In this document: positions 7,387-51,906 of the stretch, piece by piece
How the letters are laid out: every line of letters begins with the position of its first letter
Numbering within the stretch: the stretch's first letter is position 1
Assembly (NCBI GenBank): GCA_964016885.1
Contig: OZ024747.1
Coordinates: forward strand, 47,430,001 to 47,494,000
Direction: 5' to 3'
DNA length: 64,000 nucleotides
Source: Eledone cirrhosa
Taxonomy: Eukaryota
Translations under genes and position numbers: made by a program
The notes under the pieces: model-generated
What the model was told of the DNA's origin: nothing
The model's input: only the letters and a program-made list of their open reading frames with translations
Databases searched by the model: none

Positions 7387-7389
<3 letters not shown>

Positions 7390-8495: not shown

Positions 8496-8909
<414 letters not shown>

Positions 8910-9172: not shown

Positions 9173-9301
9173 CTCATCTATATTAAAACTATATATATAC
9201 AATATATATAAATATATATATATATTGTATATATATATATATACAATATATATATATATATATACAATATATATATATATATACAATTATAAAATTATAC
9301 A

Positions 9302-11402: not shown

Positions 11403-11549
11403 AATATATTTCTGTCCAGAAATAGCCGTCGAAACGGCTTGAGCTCTGCCAAAGGGGTCATACTTTTTCTTATTTCCCACTCTACTACCCTTAGTATTGA
11501 GTACTCTGGTGCGTTATGGTCCATCGGGTTCCTTACCACAATTCCTTTG

Positions 11550-11551
<2 letters not shown>
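11403..11551 (+). mobile_element. Family Q copy lacking most of the inverted arm
   Basis: TATTTCTGTCCAGAAATAGCCGTCGAAACGGC... plus the shared tail. Confidence 0.75.
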
Positions 11552-11630
<79 letters not shown>

Positions 11631-12942: not shown

Positions 12943-13512
12943 CACCGCCTCTGGCCTATGCTCATACCATTTCTCAGAATGTGGCACCTGTGCAAAGTAA
13001 ACAATCTACCACATTCTGAGAAATGGTATGAGCATAGGCCAGAGGCGGTGATGGAGAACAGTCAGGTGAAGGTGCTGTGGGATTTTAGGATACAGACGGA
13101 CAAAAAACTGGAACACAATAGACCTGACCTGGTGGTTGTGGACAAAGAAAAAAGATCGTGCCTGATTGTGGATGTGGCCTGCCCGTTCGACACGAGAGTG
13201 CAAGAGAAGGAGAGGGAGAAAATTAACCGATACCAGGACCTAAAGTGGGAGGTGAAAAGGATTTGGAACTGCCATGAAGTCAAAGTGATCCCGATTGTCA
13301 TAGGCGCACTGGGGACTATCTCCAAAGGTTTCCAGGGATGGTTAAAGAAAATCGGCCCCTTCACGCTTTTTGGAACGCTTCAAAAGGCATGCTTGCTTGG
13401 AACGGCAAGAACCCTCCGATACGTCCTGAATATCTGAGGCTGCAGGTAGTGGCTTGATATTCAATCCAACGGACTTTCCAGTTAACCAACATCAATGTCT
13501 GAGATTCAAGGA
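12941..13512 (+). mobile_element. R4/Dong-type RLE LINE family A, 5'-truncated copy with a 44-bp fold-back at its 5' end
   Basis: Near-identical to 15747-16277. RLE motif HNRPDL...VDVACP...KINRY. Flanked by (TAA)n. Confidence 0.9.
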
Positions 13513-13552
13513 ATAACAACAACAATAATAATAATAATAATAATAATAACAA

Positions 13553-16277
13553 CAGACAAGAAAGAGCAGAGCCGTGGTGGAAGAAGCGACTGAGTGGGCA
13601 AATCGGGGAAATGAGAAATGACATAGGAAAGCTTGAGTCACTAATGAATGGGACACTAAAAAACATAGGCACTAAAAATAGACTGGAAATAAAATACAAA
13701 ACTAGGAGTAAAAAGCTAAATATTATCATAGAGGAATTGAAGCAACGCATTGTAGCAAAGAGTGCAAAAATCAGACGATACGAGAACAGAGTCAGTCAGT
13801 ATAAACAGAACCGCATGTTCGACAACAACCAGAAGATGCTGTTTGGACAGCTTGAGGGGAAAGAAAGAGGCAACGACTTGATCCCTGGGGCGGAACAAAC
13901 TAAAACATTCTGGAGAGGAATATGGGAGCAGGATGTTAGACACAATGCCCAGGCAGAGTGGATTGAGACAGTACAGAGGGAGATCGGTGAGCAGGCACAG
14001 CAACAAACTGATTTGAGTATCACAGTTGAAACTCTTAAGGGGCAGGCCAAAAAACTAACCAACTGGAAATCGCCAGGCCCAGATGGTGTGCAGGGGTATT
14101 GGATTAAACATTTAACATCCCTCCACCCGAAGCTGACGGCCATGTTCAATGACTGCTTGGTGTCGGGTGAGGTGCCAGAGTGGTTGACAAAAGGTACCAC
14201 AGTTCTGATAATGAAAGACCGAATCAAGGGTAATGATGTTACCAACTATAGACCTATCACATGTCTGTCCGTAATGTGGAAACTGTTGACGAGCATTGTG
14301 TCTGAGGAAATCTACCATCACCTCCACACAAACAACTTGTTACCGGACGAACAGAAAGGATGCCGAAAGAAGTCACGTGGTACAAAGGACCAGTTACTTA
14401 TTGATAAGATGGTAATGGGGAATTGCAGGAGGAGACACACTGATCTTGCCATGGGATGGATAGACTACAGAAAGGCATTTGACATGGTGCCTCATTCCTG
14501 GATCACCAAAAGCCTGGAGATCTTCAGGGTGGCAGATAACATCAGACAGTTGCTAGGCAGGAGTATGGGGTCCTGGGAGACAGAGTTGACATCAACTGGA
14601 GTATCCTTGGGAAGCGTGAAGATCAAGAGAGGTATCTTCCAGGGAGATAGCCTGTCCCCTCTGTTGTTTGTCCTTGCCCTGATGCCCTTGACCATTATGC
14701 TGCGAAAAGTGAGAGCAGGATACAAGTTGGGAAGGGGAGAGCTTACCATCAATCACCTCCTCTTCATGGACGATCTTAAGCTATTCGGGAAAAGTGAGAA
14801 GGAGTTGGATGTGCTTGTTGACACTGTCCGTATTTTCAGCAGTGATATATGTATGCAGTTTGGTATTGGTAAATGTGGAGTCATTGTGATGAAGAGGGGT
14901 AGGTTGAGCAGAAGTAACGGGATCCATATACCAACAGGTGAGATGATAAAGGAAATTGACTCTGAGGAAGGATACAAGTATTTGGGCGTTCTGGAGGCTG
15001 ATGACATAAAGAACAAAAAAATGAAGGAATTGTTAAGAACTGAATACATTCGGAGAGTAAGGAGCGTATTGAAGTCACATCTGAACAGCAGAAATGCCAT
15101 AAGCGCAGTAAATTCCCGAGCTGTGTCTATTATCAGGTACAGTGCGGGAATTCTGAGATGGAATGTTGCTGAACAAAAAGAAATGGATAGGAAGACTAGG
15201 AAGCTATTGACTATCTACAACATGTTCCACAAGAGGAGTGATGTCGATAGACTTTACCTAAGGAGATCTGAGGGTGGAAGAGGTCTTATCAGCATAGAGG
15301 ACTGTGTTCAGATGGAGAAAAACAACCTATACAAATACGTGACCTATAGTAAGGAGCCAATGCTCAGAACTGTACTGAAGGAGGGGACAGTAGGCCAGGG
15401 GATGTCCAAGGAGGAAATAACATCAAGGAGGAAGAGCAGCCTTAAGGGAAAATCCCTTCATAGTACCTTCTTTGAGAAAACTGAATTTAGAGATCCACAG
15501 ACATGGAACTGGTTGAGAAGAGGAGACCTCAAAAAGGCTACAGAAGGAATGCTAATGGCTGCGCAGGAGCAGGCCCTCAAAACGAAGTGGTTGAAGCACC
15601 ATATCTACAAGGAGGAGGCTAGCCCACTGTGCAGGATCTGTGGAGAGAGAGAGGAGACTGTGGCTCACATTGTGTCCGAGTGTAAACACCTAGCCCAGAC
15701 CCACTATAAGGGCTGGAGACACGATGTGATGGGCAGGGTGATCCACTGGCACCTGTGCAAAGTAAACAATTTACCACATTCTGAGAAATGGTATGAGCAT
15801 AGGCCGGAGGCGGTGATGGAGAACAATCAGGTGAAGGTGCTGTGGGATTTTAGGATACAGACGGACAAAAAACTGGAACACAATAGACCTGACCTGGTGG
15901 TTGTGGACAAAGAAAAAAGATCGTGTCTGATTGTGGATGTGGCCTGCCCGTTCGACACGAGAGTGCAAGAGAAGGAGAGGGAGAAAATTAACCGATACCA
16001 GGACCTAAAGTGGGAGGTGAAAAGGATTTGGAACTGCCATGAAGTCAAAGTGATCCCGATTGTCATAGGCGCACTGGGGACTATCTCCAAAAGTTTCCAG
16101 GGATGGTTAAAGAAAATCGGCCCCTTCACGCTTTTTGGAACGCTTCAAAAGGCATGCTTGCTTGGAACAGCAAGAACCCTCCGATACGTCCTGAATATCT
16201 GAGGCTGCAGGTAGTGGCTTGATATTCATTCCAACGGACTTTCCAGTTAACCAACATCAATGACTGAGATTCAAGGA
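13553..16277 (+). mobile_element. R4/Dong-type RLE LINE family A, 5'-truncated, in (TAA)n
   Basis: The open frame starts at the (TAA)n junction (PWWKKRL). A short 3' UTR ends GAGATTCAAGGAATAACAAC(AAT)n. Confidence 0.92.
13611..16202 (+). CDS. Reverse transcriptase, CCHC zinc motif and restriction-like endonuclease (R4/Dong clade), N-terminally truncated
   Basis: KSPGPDG, YRPITCL, DYRKAFD, GIFQGDSLSPLLF, FMDD, YKYLG, CRIC...HIVSEC, RHD, HNRPD..D..K. Confidence 0.92.
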   Translation: MRNDIGKLESLMNGTLKNIGTKNRLEIKYKTRSKKLNIIIEELKQRIVAKSAKIRRYENRVSQYKQNRMFDNNQKMLFGQLEGKERGNDLIPGAEQTKTFWRGIWEQDVRHNAQAEWIETVQREIGEQAQQQTDLSITVETLKGQAKKLTNWKSPGPDGVQGYWIKHLTSLHPKLTAMFNDCLVSGEVPEWLTKGTTVLIMKDRIKGNDVTNYRPITCLSVMWKLLTSIVSEEIYHHLHTNNLLPDEQKGCRKKSRGTKDQLLIDKMVMGNCRRRHTDLAMGWIDYRKAFDMVPHSWITKSLEIFRVADNIRQLLGRSMGSWETELTSTGVSLGSVKIKRGIFQGDSLSPLLFVLALMPLTIMLRKVRAGYKLGRGELTINHLLFMDDLKLFGKSEKELDVLVDTVRIFSSDICMQFGIGKCGVIVMKRGRLSRSNGIHIPTGEMIKEIDSEEGYKYLGVLEADDIKNKKMKELLRTEYIRRVRSVLKSHLNSRNAISAVNSRAVSIIRYSAGILRWNVAEQKEMDRKTRKLLTIYNMFHKRSDVDRLYLRRSEGGRGLISIEDCVQMEKNNLYKYVTYSKEPMLRTVLKEGTVGQGMSKEEITSRRKSSLKGKSLHSTFFEKTEFRDPQTWNWLRRGDLKKATEGMLMAAQEQALKTKWLKHHIYKEEASPLCRICGEREETVAHIVSECKHLAQTHYKGWRHDVMGRVIHWHLCKVNNLPHSEKWYEHRPEAVMENNQVKVLWDFRIQTDKKLEHNRPDLVVVDKEKRSCLIVDVACPFDTRVQEKEREKINRYQDLKWEVKRIWNCHEVKVIPIVIGALGTISKSFQGWLKKIGPFTLFGTLQKACLLGTARTLRYVLNI

Positions 16278-16285
16278 ATAACAAC

Positions 16286-16321
<36 letters not shown>

Positions 16322-16324
<3 letters not shown>

Positions 16325-18227
16325 GGAAGATTGTCATAATAGACACAAAAATCTATCGATTGCGTGGATAGATTATAAAAAAGCATTCGATAGTTTGCCA
16401 CACAGTTGGATTGAAAAATGTTTAGAGATTTTCAAAATATCCCCCGTTGTCAGGAGGTTTTTGTCATTCAGTATGAGGACATGGAGAACGACACTCCTTT
16501 TGAATAGTAAAACAAAATCACTGGAAGCTGGAGAAGTTAACATTAATTGTGGAATTTTTCAGGGTGACTCTTTATCACCGCTTTTATTCTGCATCGCACT
16601 TATACCATTAAGTAAAATGCTCAATGAAACAAAACATGGATATAGAGTCTATGACAAAACCATTAATCACCTGTTCTACATGGATGACCTGAAACTATTT
16701 GCAAAAAATGATGAACAATTGCAAGGGCTATTATCCACTGTGAAGCAGTTCAGTGATGACATTAAAATGGAGTTTGGACTGGATAAATGCGCCAAAGCAA
16801 CGTTCACCAGAGGAAAGCTGCTGAAGAGTTCAGACATTAATCTTGATCGGGGGAACGTGATAAGAGAACTTGATCAAGAAAAAACTTACAAATATCTAGG
16901 TGTTTGTGAAGGAGACGGAATCAAGCACTCGACAATGAGGGAAAGGATAAGGAAGGAATGTTACCGCAGAGTCAGAGCAATCTTAAGAACGGAATTGAAT
17001 GCAAGGAATAGGATCGATGCCATAAACACGCTTGCCATACCAGTAGTAACCTACAGTTACAATGTCATCAACTGGTCAAGCACAGAGATCCGTAGGCTCG
17101 ATACAAAAATCCGAAAATTCTTAACCATGCACAGAATGCATCACCCTAAGGCAGACATAGATAGAATATATCTCCCTAGGAAAGAAGGAGGACGTGGGTT
17201 AATCCAGTTAGACATTGCGTTGAAAACTGCAACAATTGGATTATCCACATATCTAAGGGAATCACATGATTGGATGATCAAACTCGTTTTGAAACACGAA
17301 AGCACCAAAAGATCATATTCCATTACAAAAGATGCACAAAGATACAGTAATGGACTACAAATTTCAGAAGTCCCATTTACTGCTGAAATGGAAAACACAG
17401 AAAAAGCTAAGCAGGTAAAAGTAACTGCAAAGAAAGAACTGCTACAGAAACTGGCTAAGAAATGGCAAGAAAAGCCTCTGTATGGAAAATACCCAGAGCG
17501 AGCTAACAATCCTGATGTTGACAAAACTTTAACCCATCAGTGGTTGGCATCCTCTGGACTGAAATCGGAGACTGAAGGACTGATTATATCAGCACAAGAT
17601 CAGTGTCTGCCAACAAAAAATTACCAAGCCAACATAATAAAAAATGGGTGCAGCCCATTATGCCGTGTATGCAAAAAACAACCAGAGACCATTGACCATA
17701 TAATTTCAATGTGCAGTCCTATAGCTCCAACCGAATACCTAAACAGGCATGACAGAGCTGCACAATACATACATTGGATAATCTGTAAGCATTTTGACCT
17801 GCCCCATCAAAAGAATTGGTGGGAGCATCAACCACCTCCCATACTTGAAAAAGATCACATCTCAATCTTGTGGAACTTTACCATCCAAACAGACCGAAAA
17901 ATAGATGCAAATAGACCTGATATAATATTGAAGGACTTTCAAAGGAGGGTATGCCTGCTAATTGATATGTCTGTTCCAATAGACAAGAATGTATCTATAA
18001 AAACATTTGAAAAATTGAGCAAGTATAAGGACCTGGAGATAGAAATTGGAAAAATGTGGAAATTGAGAACTAAAACAATACCAGTGGTTGTAGGCGCTCT
18101 GGGAATGATACCTAAGGGGTCTAACGACTACTTATCGCAAATCCCAGGAAACCCGCGTATAGGAGAAATACAAAAGATAGTACTAATGGGAACTGCCCAT
18201 ATACTAAGGAAGATCCTGTCAATATAA
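16322..18227 (+). CDS. Partial RT, CCHC and RLE (R4/Dong family B)
   Basis: DYKKAFD, GIFQGDSLSPLLF, YMDD, YKYLG, CRVC...HIISMC, RHD, ANRPD. The real start is lost to truncation. Confidence 0.88.
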
Positions 18228-30797: not shown

Positions 30798-33700
30798 CTA
30801 CAGGCTCATGTAAAGAGAAGGCCCATTCACACGGGCCATTCTCGCCACTTTCACCCATCTTTCATAGAAACGGCTGGGGTGCAGCACCTCTCTCTCCATC
30901 CTGATCCTTCTTCCGAAATGATATCGGAAGAAACGGACCAGTTGTTGGCCAGAGAGAAAGGTGCCTGACCTCGGTCCTTTCAGACGCGTCCACCATACAA
31001 CCTCTTTCGCCATGGCTATTACGCACAGAATCACCGCCTCTGCTTCATCTTTGAAGGGGGGAGGCGGCTTGATCATTACAATAGACTCGGTGGTCAACCG
31101 GATCGGTCCCACCCTTGACAGCAGTTGTTCGACATAGCCCCACAGATCGGCTACGCCCGAGCAGTGTACCAATGCGTGTTCAACGGTTTCCTCGTCGCAC
31201 ACGCATCTGGGACAGATCTTTTTGGCGGGGTCCCTACCCGGGCGCCCGTGTCTGTAGAGCCTTTCTCGAACGGGTAAAGCCCCTCGGTAGCACTGCCAGG
31301 CCAGGGACTTCTGGAAGTTGTCCATAGGTCCCGGGCTGAATGTCCTACCGAACAGGCTGGCCAGTTCGTCCTCCTCCATGTCTAGGGCTTCTCCGAGGGC
31401 GTCGTCGCACCTGCTGCGTACCAGCCCTCTATAGAATGTTGCGGTGGAGTCTCCACTGATAACCGGATCCGCCTGCCAGAGGGCGGTGAGCGCCTGGGCA
31501 CACTCAGTGTGCCAGGCGCCCAGTTTTCTCGGTCTTTGCTTGACCCAGGATTGCAGCTCGGTGAGTGAGACGAGTCTGGGAAAGGTTCGTCTCACAAACG
31601 AGGCCCACACCGGTTGTTCGGTGAGGAATACGTAGAGGTGCCGTAGCCTTAATGCGTGTTTACGCATCATTAGCCACGGCATCCCCAGCCCTCCTTTCGA
31701 AGGGTGTTGACAGCAGATGGATCTCCTCACCATAGGAGCCCGCCTCTTCCAAAGGAATTGGAAGAGCGCGCGCTCCATCTTGGTGAGGGTTTCCCTTGGG
31801 CAGGGCACTACGGTCAGGCGGTAGTAGATGACGGACGCTATGTAGGTGTTCGCCACCTCCGCCCGACCTTTCAGGGATAGTTTGCAACTGGCCCACTTCT
31901 GGGTCAGTGCAAACACCCTGTTCGTAACCTCCGACCAGTTTTTCTCCACCTGGAGGTCCGGTCCGAACCAGACCCCAAGCAACTTCACCGGGCCCTCCGT
32001 CCAGCGTCCGACGACGCCATCGGAGGGCATCGGTCTGCCCCTCCACGTGCCGAGTTGCAAACCGATCGACTTGTCCCGGTTCAGCTTAGCCCCTGTGAAC
32101 TTTTCGTACTCCTCCAGTAAGGTGCCGACCGCCTCGATTTCGGAGGCCGTCGACACCATTACTGTCACGTCATCGGCGTAGGCCGACACCGCTTTCCGCA
32201 ATCCCGGTTCCAAAGGGATGCCCTGCAACAACTCCAACTTCCGCAGTAGTGGCTCGAGAGTCAACACATACAGAAGGGAGGAGAGAGGGCACCCTTGTCG
32301 GATGGACCGCGCGATTTTGAACGGCTCCGAGAGGTAGCCGTTCACCTTGACCCTAGAGCAGATGCGGCTGCTGTGCATAGCAGTGATCCAGCCCCTGAAA
32401 ACGGGTCCGAAGCCTGCCGCCGCTAGCACCGCATCCAGGTAACCATGGTCGACCCTATCGAACGCCTTAGATTGATCCAAGTTGATCAGAGCCCCACCAA
32501 AGCCGGGTTCGTTCCCAACCCTCTCTATGATGTATCGCATGAGGTGGAGGTTGTCATGGATGGACCTGGACGGGATAGCGCATGTCTGCGCATCTCCCAC
32601 CAGGTTGCCCACGACAAGCGCCAACCTCTTTGCTAGCACCTTGGCCAAAATCTGTAACTCTGTATTTAGCAGTGTTATGGGCCTGAAGTTACTTATTTCG
32701 TCCCCCTTGTTCTCGTCCTTCCTCACTAGCGTGACTACGCCCTTGGTCACAGTACAGGGAATTCTCCCGTTCTGTTGCCAGTTGCAGTAGACCGCCTCGA
32801 GGAGATCGGGGAACAAGTCCGGCATAGCTAGATATAATTCGTAAGGAAGACCATCGAGACCCGGGGATTTGCGTTTGCCGCATTGGCTCAGCACGTCCTC
32901 TATCTCAGCGGCCGAAATCGGCTCCTCGCAGGACTTCGCCTCCCTGTCCGAGAGGCGCGGCAGGCCGTCGAGGTATGGACCGAAGTCCACGTTCCCAACC
33001 GGCTCCCCGCCCCTCCCGAAAAGTCGGGCAAAGTGTCTTTGAAAGGCCTCACACATCTGCTTAGGCTCAAGAATCGCCCGTCCATCCAGGTCTCGCAAAG
33101 ACCGGATGGTGGATTTAGTTCCACTGTTGGCCTCTGTCACGCGGGCCCAGCTAACAGCTTTGGTCCCCTCGTTCCCTAGAGCACGTATTTTACTTCGGAC
33201 AACGCAGCCTTCGTGCTTCGCGTCGAAAAACTGGCTCAAAGCCCTTCTCGACGCTAGCACTCTGGCCACGTCGCCGATTCTAATTGCCTCTTCTACTCTA
33301 TCTATTAGCTCCCTTTCCTTCCTATTCCTATCCGCAGCTAGAACCTTACTAAATTCTATCGAGACTACTCTAATCTCTCTCTTTAGAGATACCCACCACC
33401 TGCTGTTGACGATCGCTCCAGTCAACCGTTCCTTAACTAACGTACTAATCCGATTCCTGTAGGCTCTACTTGCCGGCAAGGACAAGTTGAGCTTCCAGTA
33501 ACCGGGGCCCTGTCTATGAGTTCTGTCAAGGTTGACCATGCAGGTCACTAATTTGTGGTCTGAATAGCCAACCATGCGCATTTTTGGACAACTTAAAAAG
33601 TCCTTATCCTTAATTCTAACTAAGAACCTATCTAGGTACGACCTAGATGATCCGCTACGATTTGCCCAAGTCCAGGTTGGCGCAGTCGGAAAATCTAGTC

Positions 33701-34235
33701 GATATCTATCGGCCAGGTCAAATCGACCGATTAACCCTTTGAGGCTATTACACCCCTCTCTATCGGGGCAAGCCCCTACGTAGTCCCAGCGTGCATCTAG
33801 GATACCATTCCAGTCCCCCACTAATAGCAAGGAGCGGGACGTCCCTAGAAAAGTCTCCAGACGATGGAAGAAGTCCGGCCGCATTGACCCGAAAGGGACG
33901 TAGGCGGCTACCAACCTAAACGCTCCGCCTTTACCACTGCCAAGGTCCAGAACCACTAGTCGACCCTCCGAGTCCAAATGTACCATCTGTGTTGCGAGAC
34001 CCTGATGTTTTTGCAGCAGAACGACAACTCCGCCCCCACCTCCGGGCTGACAGAGAGATGCGTGCATCTCAAAGTCATCAAAGGTGGGGGCCAGCTGTCG
34101 CACGTTGCTGATCCGGGCCTCGCAAATAATCATCACATCTATACGTTGTGACCTGAGGTCATTTAGAAGCATTGCTTGCTTCCAAGTTGAGCCCAGGCCA
34201 CGCGCATTTAAACAGCCTACTCTTAGCATAGCCAT
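30798..34235 (-). CDS. ORF2: APE endonuclease, reverse transcriptase and C-terminal CCHC (1145 aa from ATG 34235)
   Basis: CLNARGL, VGDWN, YLDR, YSDH; KSPGLDG, FRPITLL, DQSKAFD, RQGCPLS, YADD; CPRC...HALVHC. Confidence 0.93.
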   Translation of the reverse strand: MAMLRVGCLNARGLGSTWKQAMLLNDLRSQRIDVMIICEARISNVRQLAPTFDDFEMHASLCQPGGGGGVVVLLQKHQGLATQMVHLDSEGRLVVLDLGSGKGGAFRLVAAYVPFGSMRPDFFHRLETFLGTSRSLLLVGDWNGILDARWDYVGACPDREGCNSLKGLIGRFDLADRYRLDFPTAPTWTWANRSGSSRSYLDRFLVRIKDKDFLSCPKMRMVGYSDHKLVTCMVNLDRTHRQGPGYWKLNLSLPASRAYRNRISTLVKERLTGAIVNSRWWVSLKREIRVVSIEFSKVLAADRNRKERELIDRVEEAIRIGDVARVLASRRALSQFFDAKHEGCVVRSKIRALGNEGTKAVSWARVTEANSGTKSTIRSLRDLDGRAILEPKQMCEAFQRHFARLFGRGGEPVGNVDFGPYLDGLPRLSDREAKSCEEPISAAEIEDVLSQCGKRKSPGLDGLPYELYLAMPDLFPDLLEAVYCNWQQNGRIPCTVTKGVVTLVRKDENKGDEISNFRPITLLNTELQILAKVLAKRLALVVGNLVGDAQTCAIPSRSIHDNLHLMRYIIERVGNEPGFGGALINLDQSKAFDRVDHGYLDAVLAAAGFGPVFRGWITAMHSSRICSRVKVNGYLSEPFKIARSIRQGCPLSSLLYVLTLEPLLRKLELLQGIPLEPGLRKAVSAYADDVTVMVSTASEIEAVGTLLEEYEKFTGAKLNRDKSIGLQLGTWRGRPMPSDGVVGRWTEGPVKLLGVWFGPDLQVEKNWSEVTNRVFALTQKWASCKLSLKGRAEVANTYIASVIYYRLTVVPCPRETLTKMERALFQFLWKRRAPMVRRSICCQHPSKGGLGMPWLMMRKHALRLRHLYVFLTEQPVWASFVRRTFPRLVSLTELQSWVKQRPRKLGAWHTECAQALTALWQADPVISGDSTATFYRGLVRSRCDDALGEALDMEEDELASLFGRTFSPGPMDNFQKSLAWQCYRGALPVRERLYRHGRPGRDPAKKICPRCVCDEETVEHALVHCSGVADLWGYVEQLLSRVGPIRLTTESIVMIKPPPPFKDEAEAVILCVIAMAKEVVWWTRLKGPRSGTFLSGQQLVRFFRYHFGRRIRMEREVLHPSRFYERWVKVARMARVNGPSLYMSL

Positions 34236-34259
34236 GTTGGCGGTGAAGAGAAAAGGCAC

Positions 34260-36047
34260 TTACCTCTCTGCGTCCCGGGTATCGGGCTGCACAATTTCCA
34301 TTAGGGTGGGGGATGGGTTGTTGGGTGGGGTGGTGGTTTGTGGAAGTGTGGGGGCATCAGTGTGTTGTGTGGTTGGGGAGCTTGGAGTTGTGTGGGTGTT
34401 TGGGGAGGGGGTGGGATAGTTTTTTAGGAGGACGCGGTTAATGGGCCCGACGCAGGGGGGACCCACGTCCTCTTTAAAATTGTTTTTTAAAGTTTTATAG
34501 GTGTCCTGTGGGGCCTTAATCATTTTGAGGTGGGGGAAATCCCCTGCCTGGGTGAAGTTAGGCCCTTGTGTTTTTATTAGATTGTTGTTGTACACAATGT
34601 TTAACAGTTTTTTGTTTCTTGTATTTATGTATGTGTATGCATGTTTTTGTTTTTGTGTGGTGTTTTTTGTTTGCTGTTGTGAGCTCTTTTGTGTTGGTGT
34701 CAGTGTTATGTTTTGGGGAGGGTTTTTTTTCATTTGTGTGTCTGAGGTGTGTTTTCTTTTTTTTCTTTTGATTGTGTGGAAGTGCTTCTCCTCGTCTGAC
34801 GACGAACTAGGGTCATCTTCCGCGTTGGAGGGGAGGGGTATATTTTCGGGTTGTGTTTGCGGTACGGGTGTTTTGGAAATTGTTTTTGTTTTTTGAGTGG
34901 AGGGGATGGGTTGGACATTGTTTTGTTTTGGTTTGAGCTGTGGTGGTTGTTTTTGTAGTGGTAGTTGTGGTGATTGTGTTTGTTGTGCAGTTGTTGGTGG
35001 TGTAGGCAGGATTGGGGTTTTCTTATTAAGTTGGGGACAAACAGCCTTCAGGTGACCTCTGGTTCCGCAGAGGTAACACGAGGGCCGTCTACCCTCAACG
35101 GTAATGTTGATGAAGGTTAGATCATCCAGTATGACGCGTTCAGGGATCTGGGCGATCCTTTCGGGCCTCATTTGAACTACAAGTTCGAGGCTCGTTCCAC
35201 TGAACGCGTCACCCGATGCCTTTCCCATGGACACCAGCATGTCATCCTCCAGGTCCAGAAAACCTGTCAAAACCCACCATATGTCCATAATCGGCAGGAT
35301 GGTGTGGATTTTTATTTTTTGTGTTCTTCTACCCATGTACGTAGGGTAGAAGGTGTATGCGGTGGATGTGATTGGTTTGATGGACAGTTTCACTGCTGTG
35401 TCCCTGTCCTTCATGAGAATGGATAGACTCCCGTAGAGTCTATCCTTCTGAATGAAGGTGATGTCCTTCATGACGTCTTTTAAAACCAGCTCTATCTCGC
35501 TCTGTGATGGTTGAGCTGGTTTTTTACTTTTGTTCGAGATTGTCCTAAACATGACCGTGTTTAGGAGTCTCTGGCTTTTTAGTTCCGGGGGGGAATGGAT
35601 TGTGAATGAACCATTTTCCCCGTAGACTATATATTTTTTCGCATCCGCCAGTAGCTCCTTCGCTTTTGTTATATCTACTGGCAGATAGTCGAGGGTTTTC
35701 CTTGTCGTCTCGGCGAAGGAGAAATTTTGTTTGTTTGTGTTGTTGTTGTCGTTGGTGGTGTTGTTGTTATCATTGTTGTTGTTGTCACTGTTATTGGTCT
35801 TGTTGTTGTTATTGTTATTGTTATTGGTGTTGTTTTCGTCCGTCGCATTGTTGTTGTTGTTGCTGTTGCTGCTGGTTCTTTGGGTTGTTGCCATGGCAAC
35901 GTCAAGTTGTCGGTTAACAGGTGGAGAGAATTCTTCCTCTGGCTGACCTTTCTTCTTGACCTCTGCTACTGTGACAGTGGCAGGGGGAAGCTGTAAGTTC
36001 ATCTTCCCCTTTCCTCCTTCGAATTTTGGTGAAGAAGCTTCGGCCAT
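34260..36047 (-). CDS. ORF1: gag-like nucleic-acid-binding protein with a CCHC zinc knuckle (595 aa)
   Basis: CYLCGTRGHLKAVC knuckle, Asn-rich N-terminus, Pro/Gln/Thr-rich tail; lies directly upstream of ORF2. Confidence 0.88.
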   Translation of the reverse strand: MAEASSPKFEGGKGKMNLQLPPATVTVAEVKKKGQPEEEFSPPVNRQLDVAMATTQRTSSNSNNNNNATDENNTNNNNNNNNKTNNSDNNNNDNNNTTNDNNNTNKQNFSFAETTRKTLDYLPVDITKAKELLADAKKYIVYGENGSFTIHSPPELKSQRLLNTVMFRTISNKSKKPAQPSQSEIELVLKDVMKDITFIQKDRLYGSLSILMKDRDTAVKLSIKPITSTAYTFYPTYMGRRTQKIKIHTILPIMDIWWVLTGFLDLEDDMLVSMGKASGDAFSGTSLELVVQMRPERIAQIPERVILDDLTFINITVEGRRPSCYLCGTRGHLKAVCPQLNKKTPILPTPPTTAQQTQSPQLPLQKQPPQLKPKQNNVQPIPSTQKTKTISKTPVPQTQPENIPLPSNAEDDPSSSSDEEKHFHTIKRKKRKHTSDTQMKKNPPQNITLTPTQKSSQQQTKNTTQKQKHAYTYINTRNKKLLNIVYNNNLIKTQGPNFTQAGDFPHLKMIKAPQDTYKTLKNNFKEDVGPPCVGPINRVLLKNYPTPSPNTHTTPSSPTTQHTDAPTLPQTTTPPNNPSPTLMEIVQPDTRDAER

Positions 36048-36284
36048 TTAAAAAAATATTGACTTTTCAACAAGAAAAAACTTTTTTTTTTTGTTTAACT
36101 ATTTCGCCTAAAGGCGTAGAATATTTTGAGAGACTGACCAGATCAAAGTTTGACCTGGCAGTCCCTCTACAAACTGGTACAAAAATTAAAGTTATCAGAC
36201 AAGAATTTCTATAGAAATTTAAACAGAACTTACTCAGCAAGTTATACGCGTGTGTCCATTCCAGAGAAGATAGATAGATAGATA

Positions 36285-39200
36285 AGTTTCTTTTATTTGC
36301 CACTAGGGCATCAAAAGTGGGACAAGTACAAAGGGGGGAGTTTACACAAAAAGGCGTCCTCAATAAGGAGGAGGCAATAACAAAATATAAAAATAAAATA
36401 AGATATAACAAAAAATAAAATTTTTAATAAAATCCTCAATAGAGAGGAGGCGCCTTGGGGGGTCGCACACACCCCCGAAAAAAGTGTGCAACCCTTTTCC
36501 TCAGGAGCACAGAGAGGGGGTGCTCCCTCGTTCCTTCCTCTTTTCCACCTACAGGCTTATGTAAAGAGAAGGCCCATTCACACGGGCCATTCTCGCCACT
36601 TTCACCCACCTTTCATAAAAACGACTGTGGTGCAGCACCTCTCTCTCCATCCTGATCCTTCTTCCGAAATGAAATCGGAAGAAACGGACCAGTTGTTGGC
36701 CAGAGAGAAAGGTGCCTGACCTCAGTCCTTTCAGACGCGTCCACCATACAACCTCTTTCGCCATGGCTATTACGCACAGAAACACCGCCTCTGCTTCATC
36801 TTTGAAGGGGGGAGGCGGCTTGATCATTACAATAGACTCGGTGGTCAACCGGATCGGTCCCACCCTTGACAGCAGTTGTTCGACATAGCCCCACAGATCG
36901 GCTACGCCCGAGCAGTGTACCAATGCGTGTGCAACGGTTTCCTCGTCGCACACGCATCTGGGACAGATCTTTTTGGCGGGGTCCCTACCCGGGCGCCCGT
37001 GTCTGTAGAGCCTTTCTCGAACGGGTAAAGCCCCTCGGTAGCACTGCCAGGCCAGGGACTTCTGGAAGTTGTCCATAGGTCCCGGGCTGAATGTCCTACC
37101 GAACAGGCTGGCCAGTTCGTCCTCCTCCATGTCTAGGGCTTCTCCGAGGGCGTCGTCGCACCTGCTGCGTACCAGCCCTCTATAGAATGTTGCGGTGGAG
37201 TCTCCACTGATAACCGGATCCGCCTGCCAGAGGGCGGTGAGCGCCTGGGCACACTCAGTGTGCCAGGCGCCCAGTTTTCTCGGTCTTTGCTTGACCCAGG
37301 ATTGCAGCTCGGTGAGTGAGACGAGTCTGGGAAAGGTTCGTCTCACAAACGAGGCCCACACCGGTTGTCCGGTGAGGAATACGTAGAGGTGCCGTAGCCT
37401 TAATGCGTGTTTACGCATCATTAGCCACGGCATCCCCAGCCCTCCTTTCGAAGGGTGTTGACAGCAGATGGATCTCCTCACCATAGGAGCCCGCCTCTTC
37501 CAAAGGAATTGGAAGAGCGCGCGCTCCATCTTGGTGAGGGTTTCCCTTGGGCAGGGCACTACGGTCAGGCGGTAGTAGATGACGGACGCTATATAAGTGT
37601 TCGCCACCTCCGCCCGACCTTTCAGGGATAGTTTGCAACTGGCCCACTTCTGGGTCAGTGCAAACACCCTGTTCGTAACCTCCGCCCAGTTTTTCTCCAC
37701 CTGGAGGTCCCGTCCGAACCAGACCCCGAGCAACTTCACCGGGCCCTCCGTCCAGCGTCCGACGACGCCATCAGAGGGCATCGGTCTGCCCCTCCACGTG
37801 CCGAGTTGCAAACCGATCGACTTGTCCCGGTTCAGCTTAGCCCCTGTGAACTTTTCGTACTCCTCCAGTAAGGTGCCGACCGCCTCGATTTCGGAAGCCG
37901 TCGACACCATTACTGTGACATCATCGGCGTAGGCTGACACCGCTTTCCGCAATCCCGGTTCCAAAGGGATGCCCTGCAACAACTCCAACTTCCGCAGTAG
38001 TGGCTCGAGAGTCAACACATACAGAAGGGAGGAGAGAAGGCACCCTTGTCGGATGGACCGCGCGATTTTGAACGGCTCCGAGAGGTAGCCGTTCACCTTG
38101 ACCCTAGAGCAGATGCGGCTGCTGTGCATAGCAGTGATCCAGCCCCTGAAAACGGGTCCGAAGCCTGCCGCCGCTAGCACCGCATCCAGGTAACCATGGT
38201 CGACCCTATCGAACGCCTTAGATTGATCCAAGTTGATCAGAGCCCCACCAAAGCCGGGTTCGTTCACAACCCTCTCTATGATGTATCGCATGAGGTGGAG
38301 GTTGTCATGGATGGACCTGGACGGGATAGCGCATGTCTGCGCATCTCCCACCAGGTTGCCCACGACAAGCGCCAACCTCTTTGCTAGCACCTTGGCCAAA
38401 ATCTGTAACTCTGTATTTAGCAGAGTTATGGGCCTGAAGTTACTTATTTCGTCCCCCTTGTTCTCGTCCTTCCTCACTAGCGTGACTACGCCCTTGGTCA
38501 CAGTACAGGGAATTCTCCCGTTCTGTTGCCAGTTGCAGTAGACCGCCTCGAGGAGATCGGGGAACAAGTCCGGCATAGCTAGATATAATTCGTAAGGAAG
38601 ACCATCGAGACCCGGGGATTTGCGTTTGCCGCATTGGCTCAGCACGTCCTCTATCTCAGCGGCCGAAATCGGCTCCTCGCAGGACTTCGCCTCCCTGTCC
38701 GAGAGGCGCGGCAGGCCGTCGAGGTATGGACCGAAGTCCACGTTCCCAACCGGCTCCCCGCCCCTCCCGAACAGTCGGGCAAAGTGCCTTTGAAAGGCCT
38801 CACACATCTGCTTAGGCTCAAGAATCGCCCGTCCATCCAGGTCTCGCAAAGACCGGATGGTGGATTTAGTTCCACTGTTGGCCTCTGTCACGCGGGCCCA
38901 GCTAACAGCTTTGGCCCCCTCGTTCCCTAGAGCACGTATTTTACTTCGGACAACGCAGCCTTCGTGCTTCGCGTCGAAAAACTGGCTCAAAGCCGTTCTC
39001 GACGCTAGCACTCTGGCCACGTCGCCGCTTCTAATTGCCTCTTCTACTCTATCTATTAGCTCCCTTTCCTTCCTATTCCTATCCGCAGCTAGAACCTTAC
39101 TAAATTCAATCGAGACTACTCTAATCTCTCTCTTTAGAGATACCCACCACCTGCTGTTGACGATCGCTCCAGTCAACCGTTCCTTAACTAACGTACTAAT

Positions 39201-39451
39201 CCGATTCCTATAGGCTCTACTTGCCGGCAAGGACAAGTTGAGCTTCCAGTAACCGGGGCCCTGTCTATGCGTTCTATCAAGGTTGACCATGCAGGTCACC
39301 AACTTGTGGTCTGAATAGCCAACCATGAGCATTTCTGGACAACTTAAAAAGTCCCTGTCCTTATTTCTAACTAAAAATCTATCTAGGTACGATCTAGATG
39401 ATCCGCTGCGATTTGACCAAGACCAGGTTGGCACCGTCGGAAAATCTAGTC

Positions 39452-39455
<4 letters not shown>
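36285..39455 (-). mobile_element. Second copy of the Tx1/L1 family, 5'-truncated within the endonuclease domain
   Basis: ORF 36549-39434 is nearly identical to ORF2 above. (GATA)n on both sides (36269-36284, 39456-39529). Confidence 0.92.
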
Positions 39456-39530
<75 letters not shown>

Positions 39531-42397: not shown

Positions 42398-45300
42398 GAT
42401 AGCAACTAACAGTGCTGCGATCGAATGTGGCTTTTTAGCCCAGCCAATGATCCAAAATGTCTTGCACAGAGTCGGCAACCAAAACATTTACTGGGAATAG
42501 TCGGCTGTGGTTGGAGTTCGTGTACTTTTGCATGTCGCTTGAGTCCTCCTGCTGATTTACATTCTCTACCACATGTTTGGCAAGCATGATGAGTAGCATC
42601 TCCAACAGCAGCCTGGTAGTCAACCACTGGTCTTACTTTATGACTGCGAAGATGACTTTCGAGTCCAGCTTTGCTTAGGCAGAGTCTCGCACAGACGCTG
42701 CATGTCAGAAACATAGGAGGACCCTCGCCGTCTGGAAGTGCAACAGCAATACCCTTCCTCACGTCCCGCTTTACTTTCTCGTGTGCGATTCGAGATGCCT
42801 CAAAGGCAACTTTTCCCTCATATACAGTCTTTCTCCATTTATTACGATCAGCAGCAATATTTTCCCATGTATCAGCAGAGATGTTAGCGTCTTTCAGAGA
42901 GGCCTTCAAGGAATCCTTATACCTCTTTTTTGGTTTATGTGGCGGTCGTTTTCCTTTAACCAACTCTCCATAGAAGAGTTGTTTTGGTATTCTAGAATCC
43001 TTCATCCTGGCAAGGTGACCACTCCAACGGAGTCGCTGCTTAAGCACAAGAGCTTCTATACTGTCACACATAGAGCTTTCCAAAATCTCGACATCACTGA
43101 TGTGGTCCCTCCAGCGAACGCCATGTATCCGTCTGAGACACATCTGATGGAAACGCTCCAATTGCTTAAGGTGGCGTCGATATGTGACCCAGGTCTCGCA
43201 GGCATAAAGAAGACAAGAGAGTACACATGCCCTGTACACCTTTACCTTTGTCCTCCTGCATATGTCTCGCCGACCCCAGAGTCGCCTTTCTAGCTTTCCG
43301 AAAGCATCACTTGCTTTCCTAATCCTAAGTGAGATTTCACTGTCAAGGTTGCCGTATCGATTGACAGTGCTTCCCAGGTAGACAAACTGATCAACCACTC
43401 CAAGTCGTCTGCCATACACATAGATGTTTGGTTCAGTGTACTGCCTACCAGGTGCAGGTTGGTACATGACGACGGTTTTCTTGAGACTGACAGTCAAACC
43501 CAGGGCAGTGCAAGCGTCAGAAAATACATTCAAAATGTGCTGCATATCACTCTCTGTGTGCGCTACAAGATCGCAATCATCTGCATACAAGAGGTCTCTT
43601 ATGACTGATGTAAATACTTTTGTCTTCGCAGCAAAGCGCCTGATGTTAAATATGCTGCCTGAGGTTCGATATCGGATGTAAACACCATGCTCGCAATTCC
43701 TGAATGCAATACAGAAAACCATTGCAAAGTATATGGCAAACAGGGTCGGTGCTGGAATATCCCCCTGTTTCACTCCATTTTTTACTGAGATAGGCTCCGA
43801 CATGTTACCTCCGACATTAACCCAAGCCTTCATGTCGTCATGGAAAGACCTAACTAAAGCAAGGAACTTATCAGGGCAACCAAGTTTCTGGAGAACCTTC
43901 CATAATGCATCTCTGTTGACAGTATCGAAAGCCTTTGTCAGATCGACAAAAACCTGATACAGATCCAAGCCCTGTTCAATGCACTTCTCCTGGAGCTGTC
44001 CAGCTGAGAAGATCATATCAGTAGTGCCGCGTCCAACACGAAAACCAGATTGACTTTCAGGAAGGACACAATCTGCAATGTGTGTCAGCAGACGGTCCAG
44101 AAGCACCCTACATAAAACTTTCCCCACGACAGAAAGCAATGATATACCTCTGTAGTTCCCACAATCATTCCTGTTACCCTTTCCCTTGTACAAGACCACC
44201 ATTACTGCATCTCTCCAGTCCTCAGGCACGGATTCATTAGCCCATATCCCTCCAAACAGAGAGTGAAGATGTTGCAGGAGTCTCTCACCACCATATTGTA
44301 GGAGCTCAGCATGTATGCCATCCATACCTGGAGATCTTCCACTGTTCAGCTTCGAAATAGCCACTGCAACCTCCACAAGTGTCGGAGGCTCTGCGAGAGC
44401 TACTTTCACAGGACTTTCCGGAATGAGATTGAGGAAATCTTCACTGACGACAGACGGCTGATTCAAAAGATCATCAAAGTGCTCCCGCCACCTTCGTAGA
44501 ATTCCCTGTGAGTCACGAAGAAGTTCTTTGCCATCCTTGCTGCGAATCGGTGTCACCAGAGAAGAAGACGGTCCATAAACCTCACGCAAGAGACTGTACA
44601 ACAGCTTTGTGTTATTGCAATCAGACGCAGTTTGTATCTCACCAGCCTTCTCACTCCACCACTGATCCTTCATCTGAGAAAGACTCCGCCTAACACGTGA
44701 TTTTACATCCCTGAGCTCCTCATGCAACGTATTCCTCTCCTGTGGTCTTGCCGTCAAGTAGCGTGACAGAGCGCGCCTCTTATCAGCCAACAAGTCATCT
44801 ATATGCACATCTTTCTCATTAAACCAGTCCTGATGTTTTCTCTGCACCAATCCCAGAACACGTCTGCCTACATCATAAACCGACTTTTTAAGGGTCGGCC
44901 AATCCTCACCAAGATCTGCAGCCTGCATCTCTTCTTCCAATGTCCTCTTCACATTTTTATCCTTAAGACGAGCAGCATTCAATCTTTTGGGCAGGGTAAC
45001 ACCAGGAGCCCGGATTTTACGTTTGGTGATTAGATTCACTTTTGCGCGTACCAGGCGGTGGTCCGTCCAGCACTCAGCTCCACGAAGAACACGAACACAC
45101 CGCACATCCTGTCTGTCACGCATCCTGACTAGGACGTAGTCCAAAAGATGCCATTCCTTAGATGCAGGATGCATCCATGTGGTCTTGAATTTGTTCTTTT
45201 GTTGGAACATGGTGTTGGTAACACACAGATCCAGCTCCTCACACATCTGCAGCAAGAGCATACCATTGCTGTTACACTTTCCCACCCCATGCCTTCCGAT

Positions 45301-45960
45301 TACATTCCATGTGTTAAAATCCCTACCCACTCTAGCATTAAAGTCACCAAGCACGATGACTTTGTCTGCCTGAGGGATATTTCTTAAAACACCTTTCAAG
45401 GCATGGTAAAAGGACAGTTTTTCTTCATCGACAGAATTCATAGTTGGAGCATACACACTCACCAGGGTAGCATATCTTCCCTTGTCCAGCGGAACTCTCA
45501 TGGACATAAGACGCTCACTAATCCCCACTGGGAATTCTTCCAATTTATTCACCAGTACAGTCTTAACAGCAAATCCCACCCCAGCCTCTCTTCTGGTTCC
45601 TTCATCTCTTCCTTTCCAGAAGAATGTATATTCTCCACAAAATTCCGTAAGATGACCATCTCCAGCTAACCTCGTCTCAGACAAAGCCACGATGTCAAGA
45701 TCGTAACGTCGAAGCTCCTTCGCAACAAGAGCGGTCCTTCGTTCAGGACGCTCCAAAGAATCCCTGTCAAGCAGCGTCCGTACGTTCCAGCAGCCAAGAC
45801 TAAATGCCCTGTTTGGCTCTATTACAATGGCACGATGACGGGCGGGCCCAGGTTGTGATAACTTGGGGCCCCTGCCCTTATTGCCAATGATCTTTTTTGT
45901 TCCAGAACCCAAATTGGCAATTATCTCGTTTACATTGTTCTGGAACATCATTGAATTGGG

Positions 45961-45994
<34 letters not shown>

Positions 45995-46336
45995 TAATAA
46001 TAGTAATAACAATAATAATAATAATAATAATACTACACTATTAATAATTATTAATGCACTCGTGCAATGCCTGTGCGTGACGAATATTTTTAAAGTGAGG
46101 AAAGACTGTGCACTGAACCAATCCCACTCTCTGAGCGACAGTAGCTATAACCCGAAAAGAAGAAAAGATCAACATCATCGGTAACTACTGAGCCGCAGGT
46201 TTTATATCGGAGTTAACCCAGTTTCCTGAGATGCCTTCTCCTAGAAGAATACCCTGACATGGGCTAGGGGTTCTTCACTCCCAGTGGTTTAACTGCGCGA
46301 TCGGGCATCCAGCCCGATTATTTCTATGTCCCCGCG
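42157..46336 (-). mobile_element. RTE-clade LINE, near full length, with microsatellites in both UTRs
   Basis: Single ORF 42406-45951. Upstream UTR-like segment 46040-46336. RTE-like 3' tail CTCGATAACGAGGGGGCAGCC followed by (ATGT)n. Confidence 0.75.
42406..45951 (-). CDS. RTE polyprotein: APE endonuclease, RT and three C-terminal C2H2 zinc fingers (uninterrupted; start codon uncertain)
   Basis: WNVRTL, LSETR, VYAPT, GDFNA, TDH; YRGISLL, DLTKAFD, GVKQG, YADD, YLGS; CSVC..HLRSH, CQTC..HAKVH, CRLC..HIRSQH. Confidence 0.93.
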   Translation of the reverse strand: MMFQNNVNEIIANLGSGTKKIIGNKGRGPKLSQPGPARHRAIVIEPNRAFSLGCWNVRTLLDRDSLERPERRTALVAKELRRYDLDIVALSETRLAGDGHLTEFCGEYTFFWKGRDEGTRREAGVGFAVKTVLVNKLEEFPVGISERLMSMRVPLDKGRYATLVSVYAPTMNSVDEEKLSFYHALKGVLRNIPQADKVIVLGDFNARVGRDFNTWNVIGRHGVGKCNSNGMLLLQMCEELDLCVTNTMFQQKNKFKTTWMHPASKEWHLLDYVLVRMRDRQDVRCVRVLRGAECWTDHRLVRAKVNLITKRKIRAPGVTLPKRLNAARLKDKNVKRTLEEEMQAADLGEDWPTLKKSVYDVGRRVLGLVQRKHQDWFNEKDVHIDDLLADKRRALSRYLTARPQERNTLHEELRDVKSRVRRSLSQMKDQWWSEKAGEIQTASDCNNTKLLYSLLREVYGPSSSLVTPIRSKDGKELLRDSQGILRRWREHFDDLLNQPSVVSEDFLNLIPESPVKVALAEPPTLVEVAVAISKLNSGRSPGMDGIHAELLQYGGERLLQHLHSLFGGIWANESVPEDWRDAVMVVLYKGKGNRNDCGNYRGISLLSVVGKVLCRVLLDRLLTHIADCVLPESQSGFRVGRGTTDMIFSAGQLQEKCIEQGLDLYQVFVDLTKAFDTVNRDALWKVLQKLGCPDKFLALVRSFHDDMKAWVNVGGNMSEPISVKNGVKQGDIPAPTLFAIYFAMVFCIAFRNCEHGVYIRYRTSGSIFNIRRFAAKTKVFTSVIRDLLYADDCDLVAHTESDMQHILNVFSDACTALGLTVSLKKTVVMYQPAPGRQYTEPNIYVYGRRLGVVDQFVYLGSTVNRYGNLDSEISLRIRKASDAFGKLERRLWGRRDICRRTKVKVYRACVLSCLLYACETWVTYRRHLKQLERFHQMCLRRIHGVRWRDHISDVEILESSMCDSIEALVLKQRLRWSGHLARMKDSRIPKQLFYGELVKGKRPPHKPKKRYKDSLKASLKDANISADTWENIAADRNKWRKTVYEGKVAFEASRIAHEKVKRDVRKGIAVALPDGEGPPMFLTCSVCARLCLSKAGLESHLRSHKVRPVVDYQAAVGDATHHACQTCGRECKSAGGLKRHAKVHELQPQPTIPSKCFGCRLCARHFGSLAGLKSHIRSQHC

Positions 46337-49016: not shown

Positions 49017-49176
49017 AACGAAGGAAAAGTGGTAAGGAACCAGGTGGACCATAACGCACCAAAGTACTCAATACTTAGGGTAGTAGGGTGGGTAATAGGA
49101 ACAAGTAAGACCCCGACGGCTGAGCTCAAGCCGTCGAAACGGCTTGAGCTCAGCCGTCGGGGTCTTACTTGTTCCT
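49017..49176 (-). mobile_element. Fold-back element family Q copy
   Basis: Tail plus a palindrome centred on AAGCCGT-CGAA-ACGGCTT. Confidence 0.8.
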
Positions 49177-49603
49177 ATATATATATTTTTTTTTTTTTTT
49201 TTTTTTTGTTATGTTTAGTCAGGGAGGGAGGTGCAGTGCCCATGACCCTTTACGGTGCTTCCGAGACTGGTGAGACTGAAGGATGAAGGTGTACTCAAAC
49301 AGGAGATCTGGTACAATTCTTTGCAACAGAATGGACTTAACTAAAAGCACCCAAGTTCCAAATGGTGGTGCTAAACCAGGCAACAGATTAAGTCTAGTAG
49401 ACATCTAAGCCACAATAGATTTGAACGTCGAACGTAAAGAGTCGGAGCAAACACAGCAGATCATCTCGTTTGATCCCCTAACAATTCTTCCTATTGATTC
49501 TACTAGGGCGGTCATTTATTTGATCTACTCGAAAGGATGAAACAAAGCTGATCTCAGTGACTGACAATCATTGGCTGTGTGTCTGTGTGTGTGTGTGTCT
49601 GTG

Positions 49604-50583: not shown

Positions 50584-50787
50584 TAATTTAGCGAGAATCG
50601 CATTTCGGCGGGTAGAAATTAGCGAAACGCAACTTCCATATTGTGCTGACAAGCGCTCGATGGAACTGAAGAAGATACCAGAGCTATAAACATAAGTTAA
50701 AAAGGTCATACACGCTGAGACGATGGTTAAGAAGCCATTCACCACCATACCCAAAAAAGCGAACAGGCTAAAACGGGTCAAACAAAA

Positions 50788-50827
<40 letters not shown>

Positions 50828-50948
50828 ACAAACATAGAATATTCGAAAATATTCTGTATGTTTATAATAAACATTTTGAAGACCTAATCGCTATAGAATA
50901 ATATACGTCACGTATTACAATTTGAGATTCTCGATAAAAGCAAGGGAA

Positions 50949-50991
50949 GTAACCTACGCGTTTCATTCTTATTAGAAATCATCAGGATTAC
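50949..50991 (-). ncRNA. Minimal type I hammerhead ribozyme (P4)
   Basis: Reverse complement of 51216-51258. Confidence 0.8.
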
Positions 50992-51215
50992 ATATCCAAT
51001 GCTTTTATCGAGAACGACACAGCTAGAGACTTATAGAATACTTAGCTGTGTACAGGAACTGGTTTGAAAGAGCGGTAGCCGGTCCGGCAGAAATTAGAAT
51101 TTGGATTTAATGCTCTGAAATAGCGATATATATGTGAAGACAAACATAGAATATTCGAAAATATTCTGTATGTTTATAATAAACATTTTGAAGACCTAAT
51201 AAAAGCATTGGATAT

Positions 51216-51258
51216 GTAATCCTGATGATTTCTAATAAGAATGAAACGCGTAGGTTAC
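51216..51258 (+). ncRNA. Minimal type I hammerhead ribozyme (P4)
   Basis: gtaatc CTGATGA t ttct-aata-agaa t GAAA cgcg TA ggttac; GUA site after 51252. Confidence 0.82.
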
Positions 51259-51526
51259 TTCCTTGCTTTTATCGAGAATCTCAAATTGTAATACGTGACG
51301 TATTCTATTCTATAGCGATTAGGTCTTCAAAATGTTTATTATAAACATACAGAATATTTTCGAATATTCTATGTTTGTCTTCACATATATATCGCTATTT
51401 CAGAGCATTAAATCCAAATTCTAATTTCTGCCGGACCGGCTACCGCTCTTTCAAACCAGTTCCTGTACACAGCTAAGTATTCTATAAGTCTCTAGCTGTG
51501 TCGTTCTCGATAAAAGCATTGGATAT

Positions 51527-51569
51527 GTAATCCTGATGATTTCTAATAAGAATGAAACGCGTAGGTTAC
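51527..51569 (+). ncRNA. Minimal type I hammerhead ribozyme (P4)
   Basis: Identical motif; GUA site after 51563. Confidence 0.82.
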
Positions 51570-51906
51570 TTCCCTTGCTTTTATCGAGAATCTCAAATTG
51601 TAATACGTGACGTATTCTATTCTATAGCGATTAGGTCTTCAAAATGTTTATTATAAACATACAGAATATTTTCGAATATTCTATGTTTGTCTTCACATAT
51701 ATATCGCTATTTCAGAGCATTAAATCCAAAATATATATATATATATATATTATATTTTCTCGCAAAACCACAAACTCTCCATCTCAACTCTACTTTTGAA
51801 AAGCACAAGAACTGCGAAACCGGTAAAGGAACCAAATAAATATATTAAAAAAAAAAAGACTCCAGTTGCATTTTCGATTTCATCTTCTTTCCTTATATAT
51901 ATATAT

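Follow-up and report, generated by a model that had tools for sequence, protein, structure and literature searches.

The 64,000-nt stretch of the Eledone cirrhosa genome considered here, the window, holds a short tandem array with three hammerhead ribozyme motifs, part of which is inverted. What kind of element is this, and how was it copied into its present form? The initial annotation took it for a cephalopod retrozyme with a unit-length, circularisable RNA. On all testable features the element does appear to be a non-LTR retrozyme, for which self-cleavage and a circular RNA are predicted.

The 312-nt unit and its hammerhead

The features of the locus are collected in Table 1, with unit positions counted from the base after GUA (position 1). 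The two arms read in opposite, diverging directions, each ending in (TA)n. All three annotated hammerheads were recovered: GAAACGCGUA motifs place the cut-site base at 51252 and 51563 on the plus strand and at 50955 on the minus strand. The two plus-strand copies are 311 nt apart, as claimed, and identical (64 nt, 51199-51262 vs. 51510-51573, 100%), and the inverted minus-strand arm of 1.2 units was confirmed as well. The annotated unit length of ~311 bp is right for this copy and wrong for the family, whose unit has 312 nt: the middle unit of the window has lost one base just 3′ of the cut site, a deletion seen in 1 of 209 units at that column.

Table 1. Features of the retrozyme locus, in window positions
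Feature	Position	Strand	Basis
(TA)n target microsatellite, left flank	50790..50824	.	sequence
Left arm (1.2 units, read leftward), from unit position 67 at its 5′ end to ~130 at its "short", tailless 3′ end	50825..51200	-	
Type I hammerhead 1; predicted cut (GUA) after 50955	50935..51000	-	motif and Rfam HH9
Head-to-head junction of both arms, 2-nt overlap (AT)	51199..51200	.	
Right arm (1.7 units), from unit position 259 at its 5′ end to 167 at its "long" 3′ end	51199..51730	+	
Type I hammerhead 2; predicted cut after 51252; core CUGAUGA at 51222; U-U at helix II base; helix III palindromic, ACGCGU	51207..51272	+	motif, subfamily comparison and Rfam HH9
Predicted monomer or circle, a full unit between successive cut sites; length 311 nt in this copy vs. 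312 nt for the family; 34% GC; highly self-paired	51253..51563	+	
Type I hammerhead 3; predicted cut after 51563	51518..51583	+	motif and Rfam HH9
"Tail" of ~35 nt, unit positions 133-167, on the 3′ end of one arm only; starts with an internal (AT)4 run	51696..51730	+	
(TA)n target microsatellite, right flank	51731..51750	.	

At the gathering score, Rfam gives no match in the window; at E ≤ 1 over 50700-51900 it gives only three, all Hammerhead_HH9 at the three sites (E 0.035-0.037; 20.5 bits vs. a cut-off of 52). The core is not a chance occurrence, since its 31 nt have 612 exact copies genome-wide vs. 0 for the reversed control. The motif had been described as a minimal hammerhead; its 6-bp helix I, hexaloop II and short palindromic helix III instead fit the canonical metazoan type I, not the helix-III-less form of PMC4209133. 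The view of the element as a non-coding tandem unit with a type I hammerhead stands, and the hammerhead proved to be conserved and covarying.

The stems were compared in 12 representatives picked from diverged copies, which are related rows and not 12 independent events. Pairs were counted on motif-anchored rows because the unconstrained consensus fold of the alignment recovered helix II and mispaired the core. Helices I and II keep pairing through changed sequence; pairs 2 and 3 of helix II are formed in 12/12 representatives, with three pair types each. The cleavage triplet is GUH in all 12, the core varies between C3-G8 and U3-A8, and position 10.1-11.1 has U-U in three, a standard pair in eight and G-G in one. 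Among ~200 units the core columns are near-invariant and every unit contains the hammerhead, the exception being the two-armed insertion L143, in which 5/6 units read GUG at the cut site. The covariation across sister subfamilies suggests that the hammerhead is under selection, and it is quite likely that the ribozyme is active.

The annotated logic that tandem copies supply a dimer partner is supported. Helix III is self-complementary in 12/12 representatives, at lengths of 6, 8, 9 and 12 nt (6/6 twice, 8/8 once, 8/9 four times, 12/12 three times and 10/12 twice), and forcing the double-hammerhead fold on 51199-51600 costs only 1.4 kcal/mol (-97.0 vs. -98.4). In PMC4209133, a palindromic helix III is explained as dimer-dependent. 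For Xenopus retrozymes, 8/9 dimers without cleavage are reported (10.64898/2026.07.22.740005). Folded as a circle, the unit reaches -71.1 kcal/mol (z -4.9), and 0/60 shuffles are as low; the antisense strand folds equally well (z -5.6), so the RNA is not distinguished by its fold.

The 312-nt repeat family is young, dispersed and non-coding. Searching the animal's own 3.0-Gb genome at the DNA level turned up 497 candidate places, of which 39 were scored; these 39 yielded 254 matches, with 97-100% identity among the 150 listed, and 64 dispersed loci were mapped (39 + 25). Extrapolation from the first 100 exact cores, which lie in 36 loci, puts the family at roughly 200 loci. There is no ORF of at least 150 aa over 50825-51730, and none in the unit or between hammerheads. 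The unit wraps onto itself, lacks an LTR, PBS and PPT (the latter two judged by eye), and does not contain the RT plus GIY-YIG ORF of an autonomous Penelope-like element (PLE).

Sister subfamilies with units of 310, 311 and ~320 nt, and others, have the same design. The 14-nt tail motif has 26,029 exact copies, which makes the wider clade a large and real component of the genome; a loose hammerhead core pattern has 36,101 matches. An array of ~28 units of the 320-nt sister family (G000:C14:23499215-23508236), whose units recur in a few score classes, is possibly a higher-order repeat. A core variant UUGAUAA, with U3 and A8 replacing C3 and G8, occurs in sister subfamilies (L011, L141, L144, L225, L051) and in one PLE family (PLE ends in L099-L104 and L195). 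The fragment at 9126-9190 of the window comes from a very abundant family. The hammerhead core of that family is almost the same as that of the 312-nt family, and its long upstream part is non-coding, with no ORF seen.

Insertion anatomy and a probable link to Penelope-like elements

The insertions were mapped at the 39 scored loci, at 25 further 312-type loci from the contig-1 exact-core list and in 11 stretches of the 310-type, 2 of them without a usable array. The first 39 favour young, long arrays, since they are the best-scoring of 497 candidates. The inverted array, treated in the initial annotation as a side feature, is the rule: 35/39 loci of the first set are two-armed and diverging (4 one-armed), as are 18/25 of the second (7 one-armed), so that an inverted 5′-truncated copy lies beside the 5′ end. 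The longest arm has 22 units (L057).

The ends of the arms follow a strict pattern. In the first set, 29/30 classifiable two-armed loci have one long and one short 3′ end; L031 has two long ends with mirrored flanks, and 5 are unclassifiable. The second set gives 15/15 long/short pairs with 3 unclassifiable, and the 310-nt subfamily 9/9, so that overall 53/54 classifiable two-armed insertions pair a long with a short 3′ end and thus have the 30-40-bp tail at one end only. Long ends lie at unit positions 165-172 (~168), short ends at 116-141, for the most part at 132 if the TA run is not counted, and 57/71 long or short ends run straight into at least three TA repeats. The array ends had been thought to fall at arbitrary points of the unit. 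Mapping of the start and end phases at these loci upheld this for the inner junction, where the 5′ ends show an even distribution over the unit (KS vs. uniform p = 0.25, n = 119), and not for the outer 3′ ends, which are fixed at ~132 and ~168. A cluster of 5′ ends at unit positions 248-267 (18/119 vs. 7.6 expected; second set 7/44, p = 0.02) was chosen post hoc and was discarded, the scan statistic in the first set being p = 0.19. At 34 inner junctions the arms overlap by 1-15 nt in 20, meet bluntly in 4 and are separated by extra bases in 10. A search for target-site duplications at 39 loci revealed no consistent direct repeat at the ends, where (TA)n would mask one.

The fixed outer 3′ ends tie the element to PLE-type priming. 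PLE insertions are described as partial tandems with an adjacent inverted 5′-truncated copy, a 30-40-bp tail at one end and a (TA)n bias (PMC8557442), and a PLE protein nicks and extends both strands, with two internal start sites on the RNA, one on either side of the tail (PMC11167929). We therefore consider the insertion of the 312-nt unit to be of the PLE type with high confidence. The window offers an internal control: positions 8013-8460 match, with 100% identity, the 3′ end of an element with RT and GIY-YIG (L182, with RVT_1, below cut-off, and GIY-YIG matches) and show the same inverted-plus-tail build. Both 2058-2474 and 8013-8460 are inverted pairs of such a PLE 3′ end, with a hammerhead in each arm and the tail on one arm.

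One might suppose that the copies are mere 5′-truncated pLTRs of a coding Penelope-like element, since they are inserted in the manner of PLE ends and the same 64-kb window also contains genuine hammerhead-bearing pLTR fragments. However, the 312-nt spacing of successive hammerheads leaves no space for an ORF, the sequence 5′ of each hammerhead wraps into the tail of the previous unit, and in 11 one-armed copies the preceding 150 nt are, as judged by eye, for the most part microsatellite or sequence unrelated to the unit. Among 50 GIY-YIG loci the only match is a separate sister-family insertion in L100. The simple-pLTR reading, which the initial annotation had named as the alternative to be checked, is thus largely refuted and highly improbable.

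The genome is rich in GIY-YIG elements (10,594 candidate loci). An autonomous partner PLE with a homologous pLTR was found neither among 50 of the 150 such loci listed nor at sister-family loci. The L100 sister element, at first a candidate pLTR, proved to lie beyond the end of the PLE itself, as an inverted insertion of its own. Alignments of the tail with 9 PLE-type ends yielded none that was significant (best p 0.012 of 27 tests); a likeness to PLE family L099 (p = 0.03, one of the 27 tests) was dropped. The names of the Neptune and Hydra clades, which we presume to apply to these GIY-YIG ORFs, are assigned from sequence motifs and PMC8557442.

Immediately beyond the array, 51764-51897 contains the 3′ end of another GIY-YIG element family (92% to locus L117) with the 3′ half of a hammerhead; this fragment and the retrozyme array are nested insertions in one (TA)n site. 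Just left of the array, between TA runs, lies a dispersed repeat (50586-50790) with 72-84% matches in L198, L038, L261 and L244.

Circle or multimer as the template

Because priming occurs in mid-unit, any arm longer than 132-168 nt has crossed the cut site. The first set contains 208 such read-throughs; only 4/119 5′ ends stop within 5 nt of the site vs. 3.8 expected, which also disposes of a pile-up of 5′ ends there, and the cut-site columns are near-invariant and without scars. The template was therefore not a cleaved linear monomer; it was either an uncleaved multimer or a circle closed by ligation. The same three observations speak against jumping from the end of one cleaved linear monomer to the next.

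The variants carried by the arms bear on this choice. At 19 sites in 32 two-armed loci, both arms of a locus represent one haplotype, with 24 shared variant states and 3 discordant; 5000 re-pairings of arms gave means of 4.0 shared and 42.6 discordant, and 0/5000 reached 24 shared. Several variants of the first set are fixed in a single locus: 87G in L052 (8/8 covering units), 267T in L062 (5/5) and 44T in L048 (4/4). The 8 arrays compared in the 310-nt subfamily fall into 6 haplotypes; both arms of an array are fixed for the same haplotype, and singleton changes total 6. These very young arrays are uniform within and distinct between loci. A-to-I editing was dismissed as the origin of this variation, since A>G singletons are as frequent as T>C singletons (7.2 vs. 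7.1 per 10 kb). Locus-private variants that are fixed favour a one-unit bottleneck and hence a circle, so that a monomer circle was probably the usual template. Homogeneous arms may also derive from a homogeneous source array, which is a caveat to the circle reading. Some loci carry partial or periodic variants: 148G occurs once per arm of L036, 188A and 190A stand in units 0 and 4 of L043, L042 behaves likewise, and L057 is a mosaic. These count against a single monomer circle, because it would need later shuffling to yield them.

The main rival is PLE-type double priming on an uncleaved linear multimer (or a multi-unit circle) from a source array, with the hammerhead acting late or rarely. 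It is equally compatible with the even spread of 5′ ends and with copying through the cut site; the partial and periodic variants of L036, L042 and L043 and the L143 array, with its uncleavable GUG triplet in 5/6 units, speak in its favour. Moreover, with the anole PLE (PAc) in vitro, unprocessed RNA is the main, preferred substrate and the element's own hammerhead is dispensable (PMC11167929). On a multimer, however, a new mutation in one unit of the source array would reach just one unit of the daughter array, yet the variants private to a locus are found throughout the units of its two arms, without exception; together with very young arrays that differ by fixed haplotypes, this requires a one-unit bottleneck, and the sustained covariation of the ribozyme does not fit either. 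We regard the multimer template as rather unlikely.

Still less probable, in our estimate, is a short PLE-type insertion that later expanded as DNA by unequal crossover and inter-arm conversion, that is, a local satellite of the sort proposed for Xenopus retrozymes. The mosaic 22-unit arm of L057 and the common variants of adjacent units in L035, L038 and L061 would agree with it, and the two long ends of L031, with their mirrored flanks, are what conversion would give. Against it, arrays almost without divergence already have multi-unit arms on both sides, any arm of more than one unit requires a wrapped template, and the long/short asymmetry is kept in 53/54 insertions, so inter-arm conversion must be rare.

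Retrotransposition from one RNA accounts best for these data: the 312-nt unit is probably a non-LTR retrozyme that PLE enzymes insert by two reverse-transcription events on a single and presumably circular RNA. Tandem transcripts would fold as a double hammerhead and release the monomer, which a host ligase would close into a circle. The GIY-YIG endonuclease of a PLE would nick both strands of (TA)n; one reverse transcriptase would prime near unit position 168 and another near 132, beside the unit's own (UA)4 run. Pairing of the (AT)4 run of the unit with the nicked (TA)n target is plausible for the short end, because that end adjoins the run. Both enzymes would then pass the ligated cut site, for up to several turns, and the two cDNA ends would be joined, often via 1-15 nt of complementarity.

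In its fullest form, offered tentatively, this reading makes each insertion the fossil of twin rolling-circle reverse transcription, in which a pair of PLE enzymes, primed from both nicked strands, would start on a single circle made by the ribozyme, at two fixed positions separated by 36 nt, and lay down two diverging arrays. If true, it would be direct genomic evidence for retrozyme circles as a transposition template, and it would explain the tandem, inverted and tail structures of PLEs by one mechanism.

Four sequencing runs were compared, all of them contigs for which the kind of nucleic acid (DNA or RNA) is not given. In run X4, which has another organism label, the family is represented by one 342-nt contig that loops back by 312 with 5 differences, at a depth of 18.5. 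The haplotype of this self-looping contig (312 + 30 nt) is absent from the mapped units, and it fits both an expressed circle and one uniform DNA array. Run X1 resembles genomic DNA; X5 and X6 yield fragments only.

Known systems and neighbouring features

Non-LTR retrozymes, including one from a mollusc, are established (PMC7229834). Like those of coral, mussel and axolotl in that paper, the present element is a low-GC, non-coding and highly self-paired tandem unit within their 150-450-bp range, with one type I hammerhead each. It shares a weak palindromic helix III with axolotl HHR_Amex1 and the U-U at the base of helix II with HHR_Amex2. It differs in that circles were demonstrated for those retrozymes and are only predicted for the 312-nt unit, and in that insertions of the latter typically consist of two inverted arms whose ends, one long and one short, are fixed. 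The main text of PMC7229834 does not mention "inverted", "tail", "microsatellite", "octopus" or "cephalopod". In giant squid, 235 hammerheads were counted (PMC6962438). In the literature consulted, mostly open-access main texts whose supplements may list further invertebrates, there is no retrozyme with paired long/short ends or arm-shared haplotypes and no cephalopod retrozyme.

Work on retrozymes of Xenopus and other vertebrates reached the same conclusion on PLE dependence, treating them as non-autonomous PLE derivatives (10.64898/2026.07.22.740005). That conclusion was based on co-occurrence and pLTR homology, with local tandem amplification proposed, whereas ours is based on insertion anatomy and no homologous pLTR was found. 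EN+ PLEs (Neptune, Hydra, Naiad; anole Poseidon PAc) likewise target (TA)n and combine an inverted 5′-truncated copy with a one-sided tail of 30-40 bp and a hammerhead upstream of the priming sites (PMC8557442, PMC11167929); the 312-nt unit, unlike them, has no ORF and is repeated up to 22 times per arm. Non-autonomous Chlamys elements such as MRC1 are also non-coding PLE dependants with multicopy head-to-tail insertions, but they are algal, belong to a mostly hammerhead-free clade and have 3′ similarity to known autonomous partners (PMC8557442).

The retrozyme class is thus established and its PLE dependence has been argued before, and what this family adds is unusually clear mechanistic footprints. 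Both the enzyme that moves animal retrozymes and the use of circles as template are only proposed (PMC7229834, PMC7761336), as is the copying of circles over more than one unit (PMC4209133, PMC7761336). The family therefore touches two questions, that of retrozyme enzyme and template and that of how PLEs make tandem, inverted and tailed insertions (PMC8557442). Hundreds of near-identical, haplotype-tagged insertions provide exact predicted priming sites and a minimal RNA for the question of circle vs. multimer.

The window also contains another repeat with inverted arms, a one-sided tail of ~85 nt and (TA)n flanks, at 7383-7579, 8494-8688, 11406-11553, 49017-49178, 51905-52128, 52148-52339 and 53512-53649; a motif scan for the CUGANGA-GAAA hammerhead found none in these copies. 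Long, near-intact ORFs at 13503-18227, 30798-39530 and 42406-46032 are, judged by their motifs, probably LINE-type reverse transcriptases of several kinds, and 52690-53340 is presumably, again judged by a motif, the decayed remnant of a mariner-like transposase.
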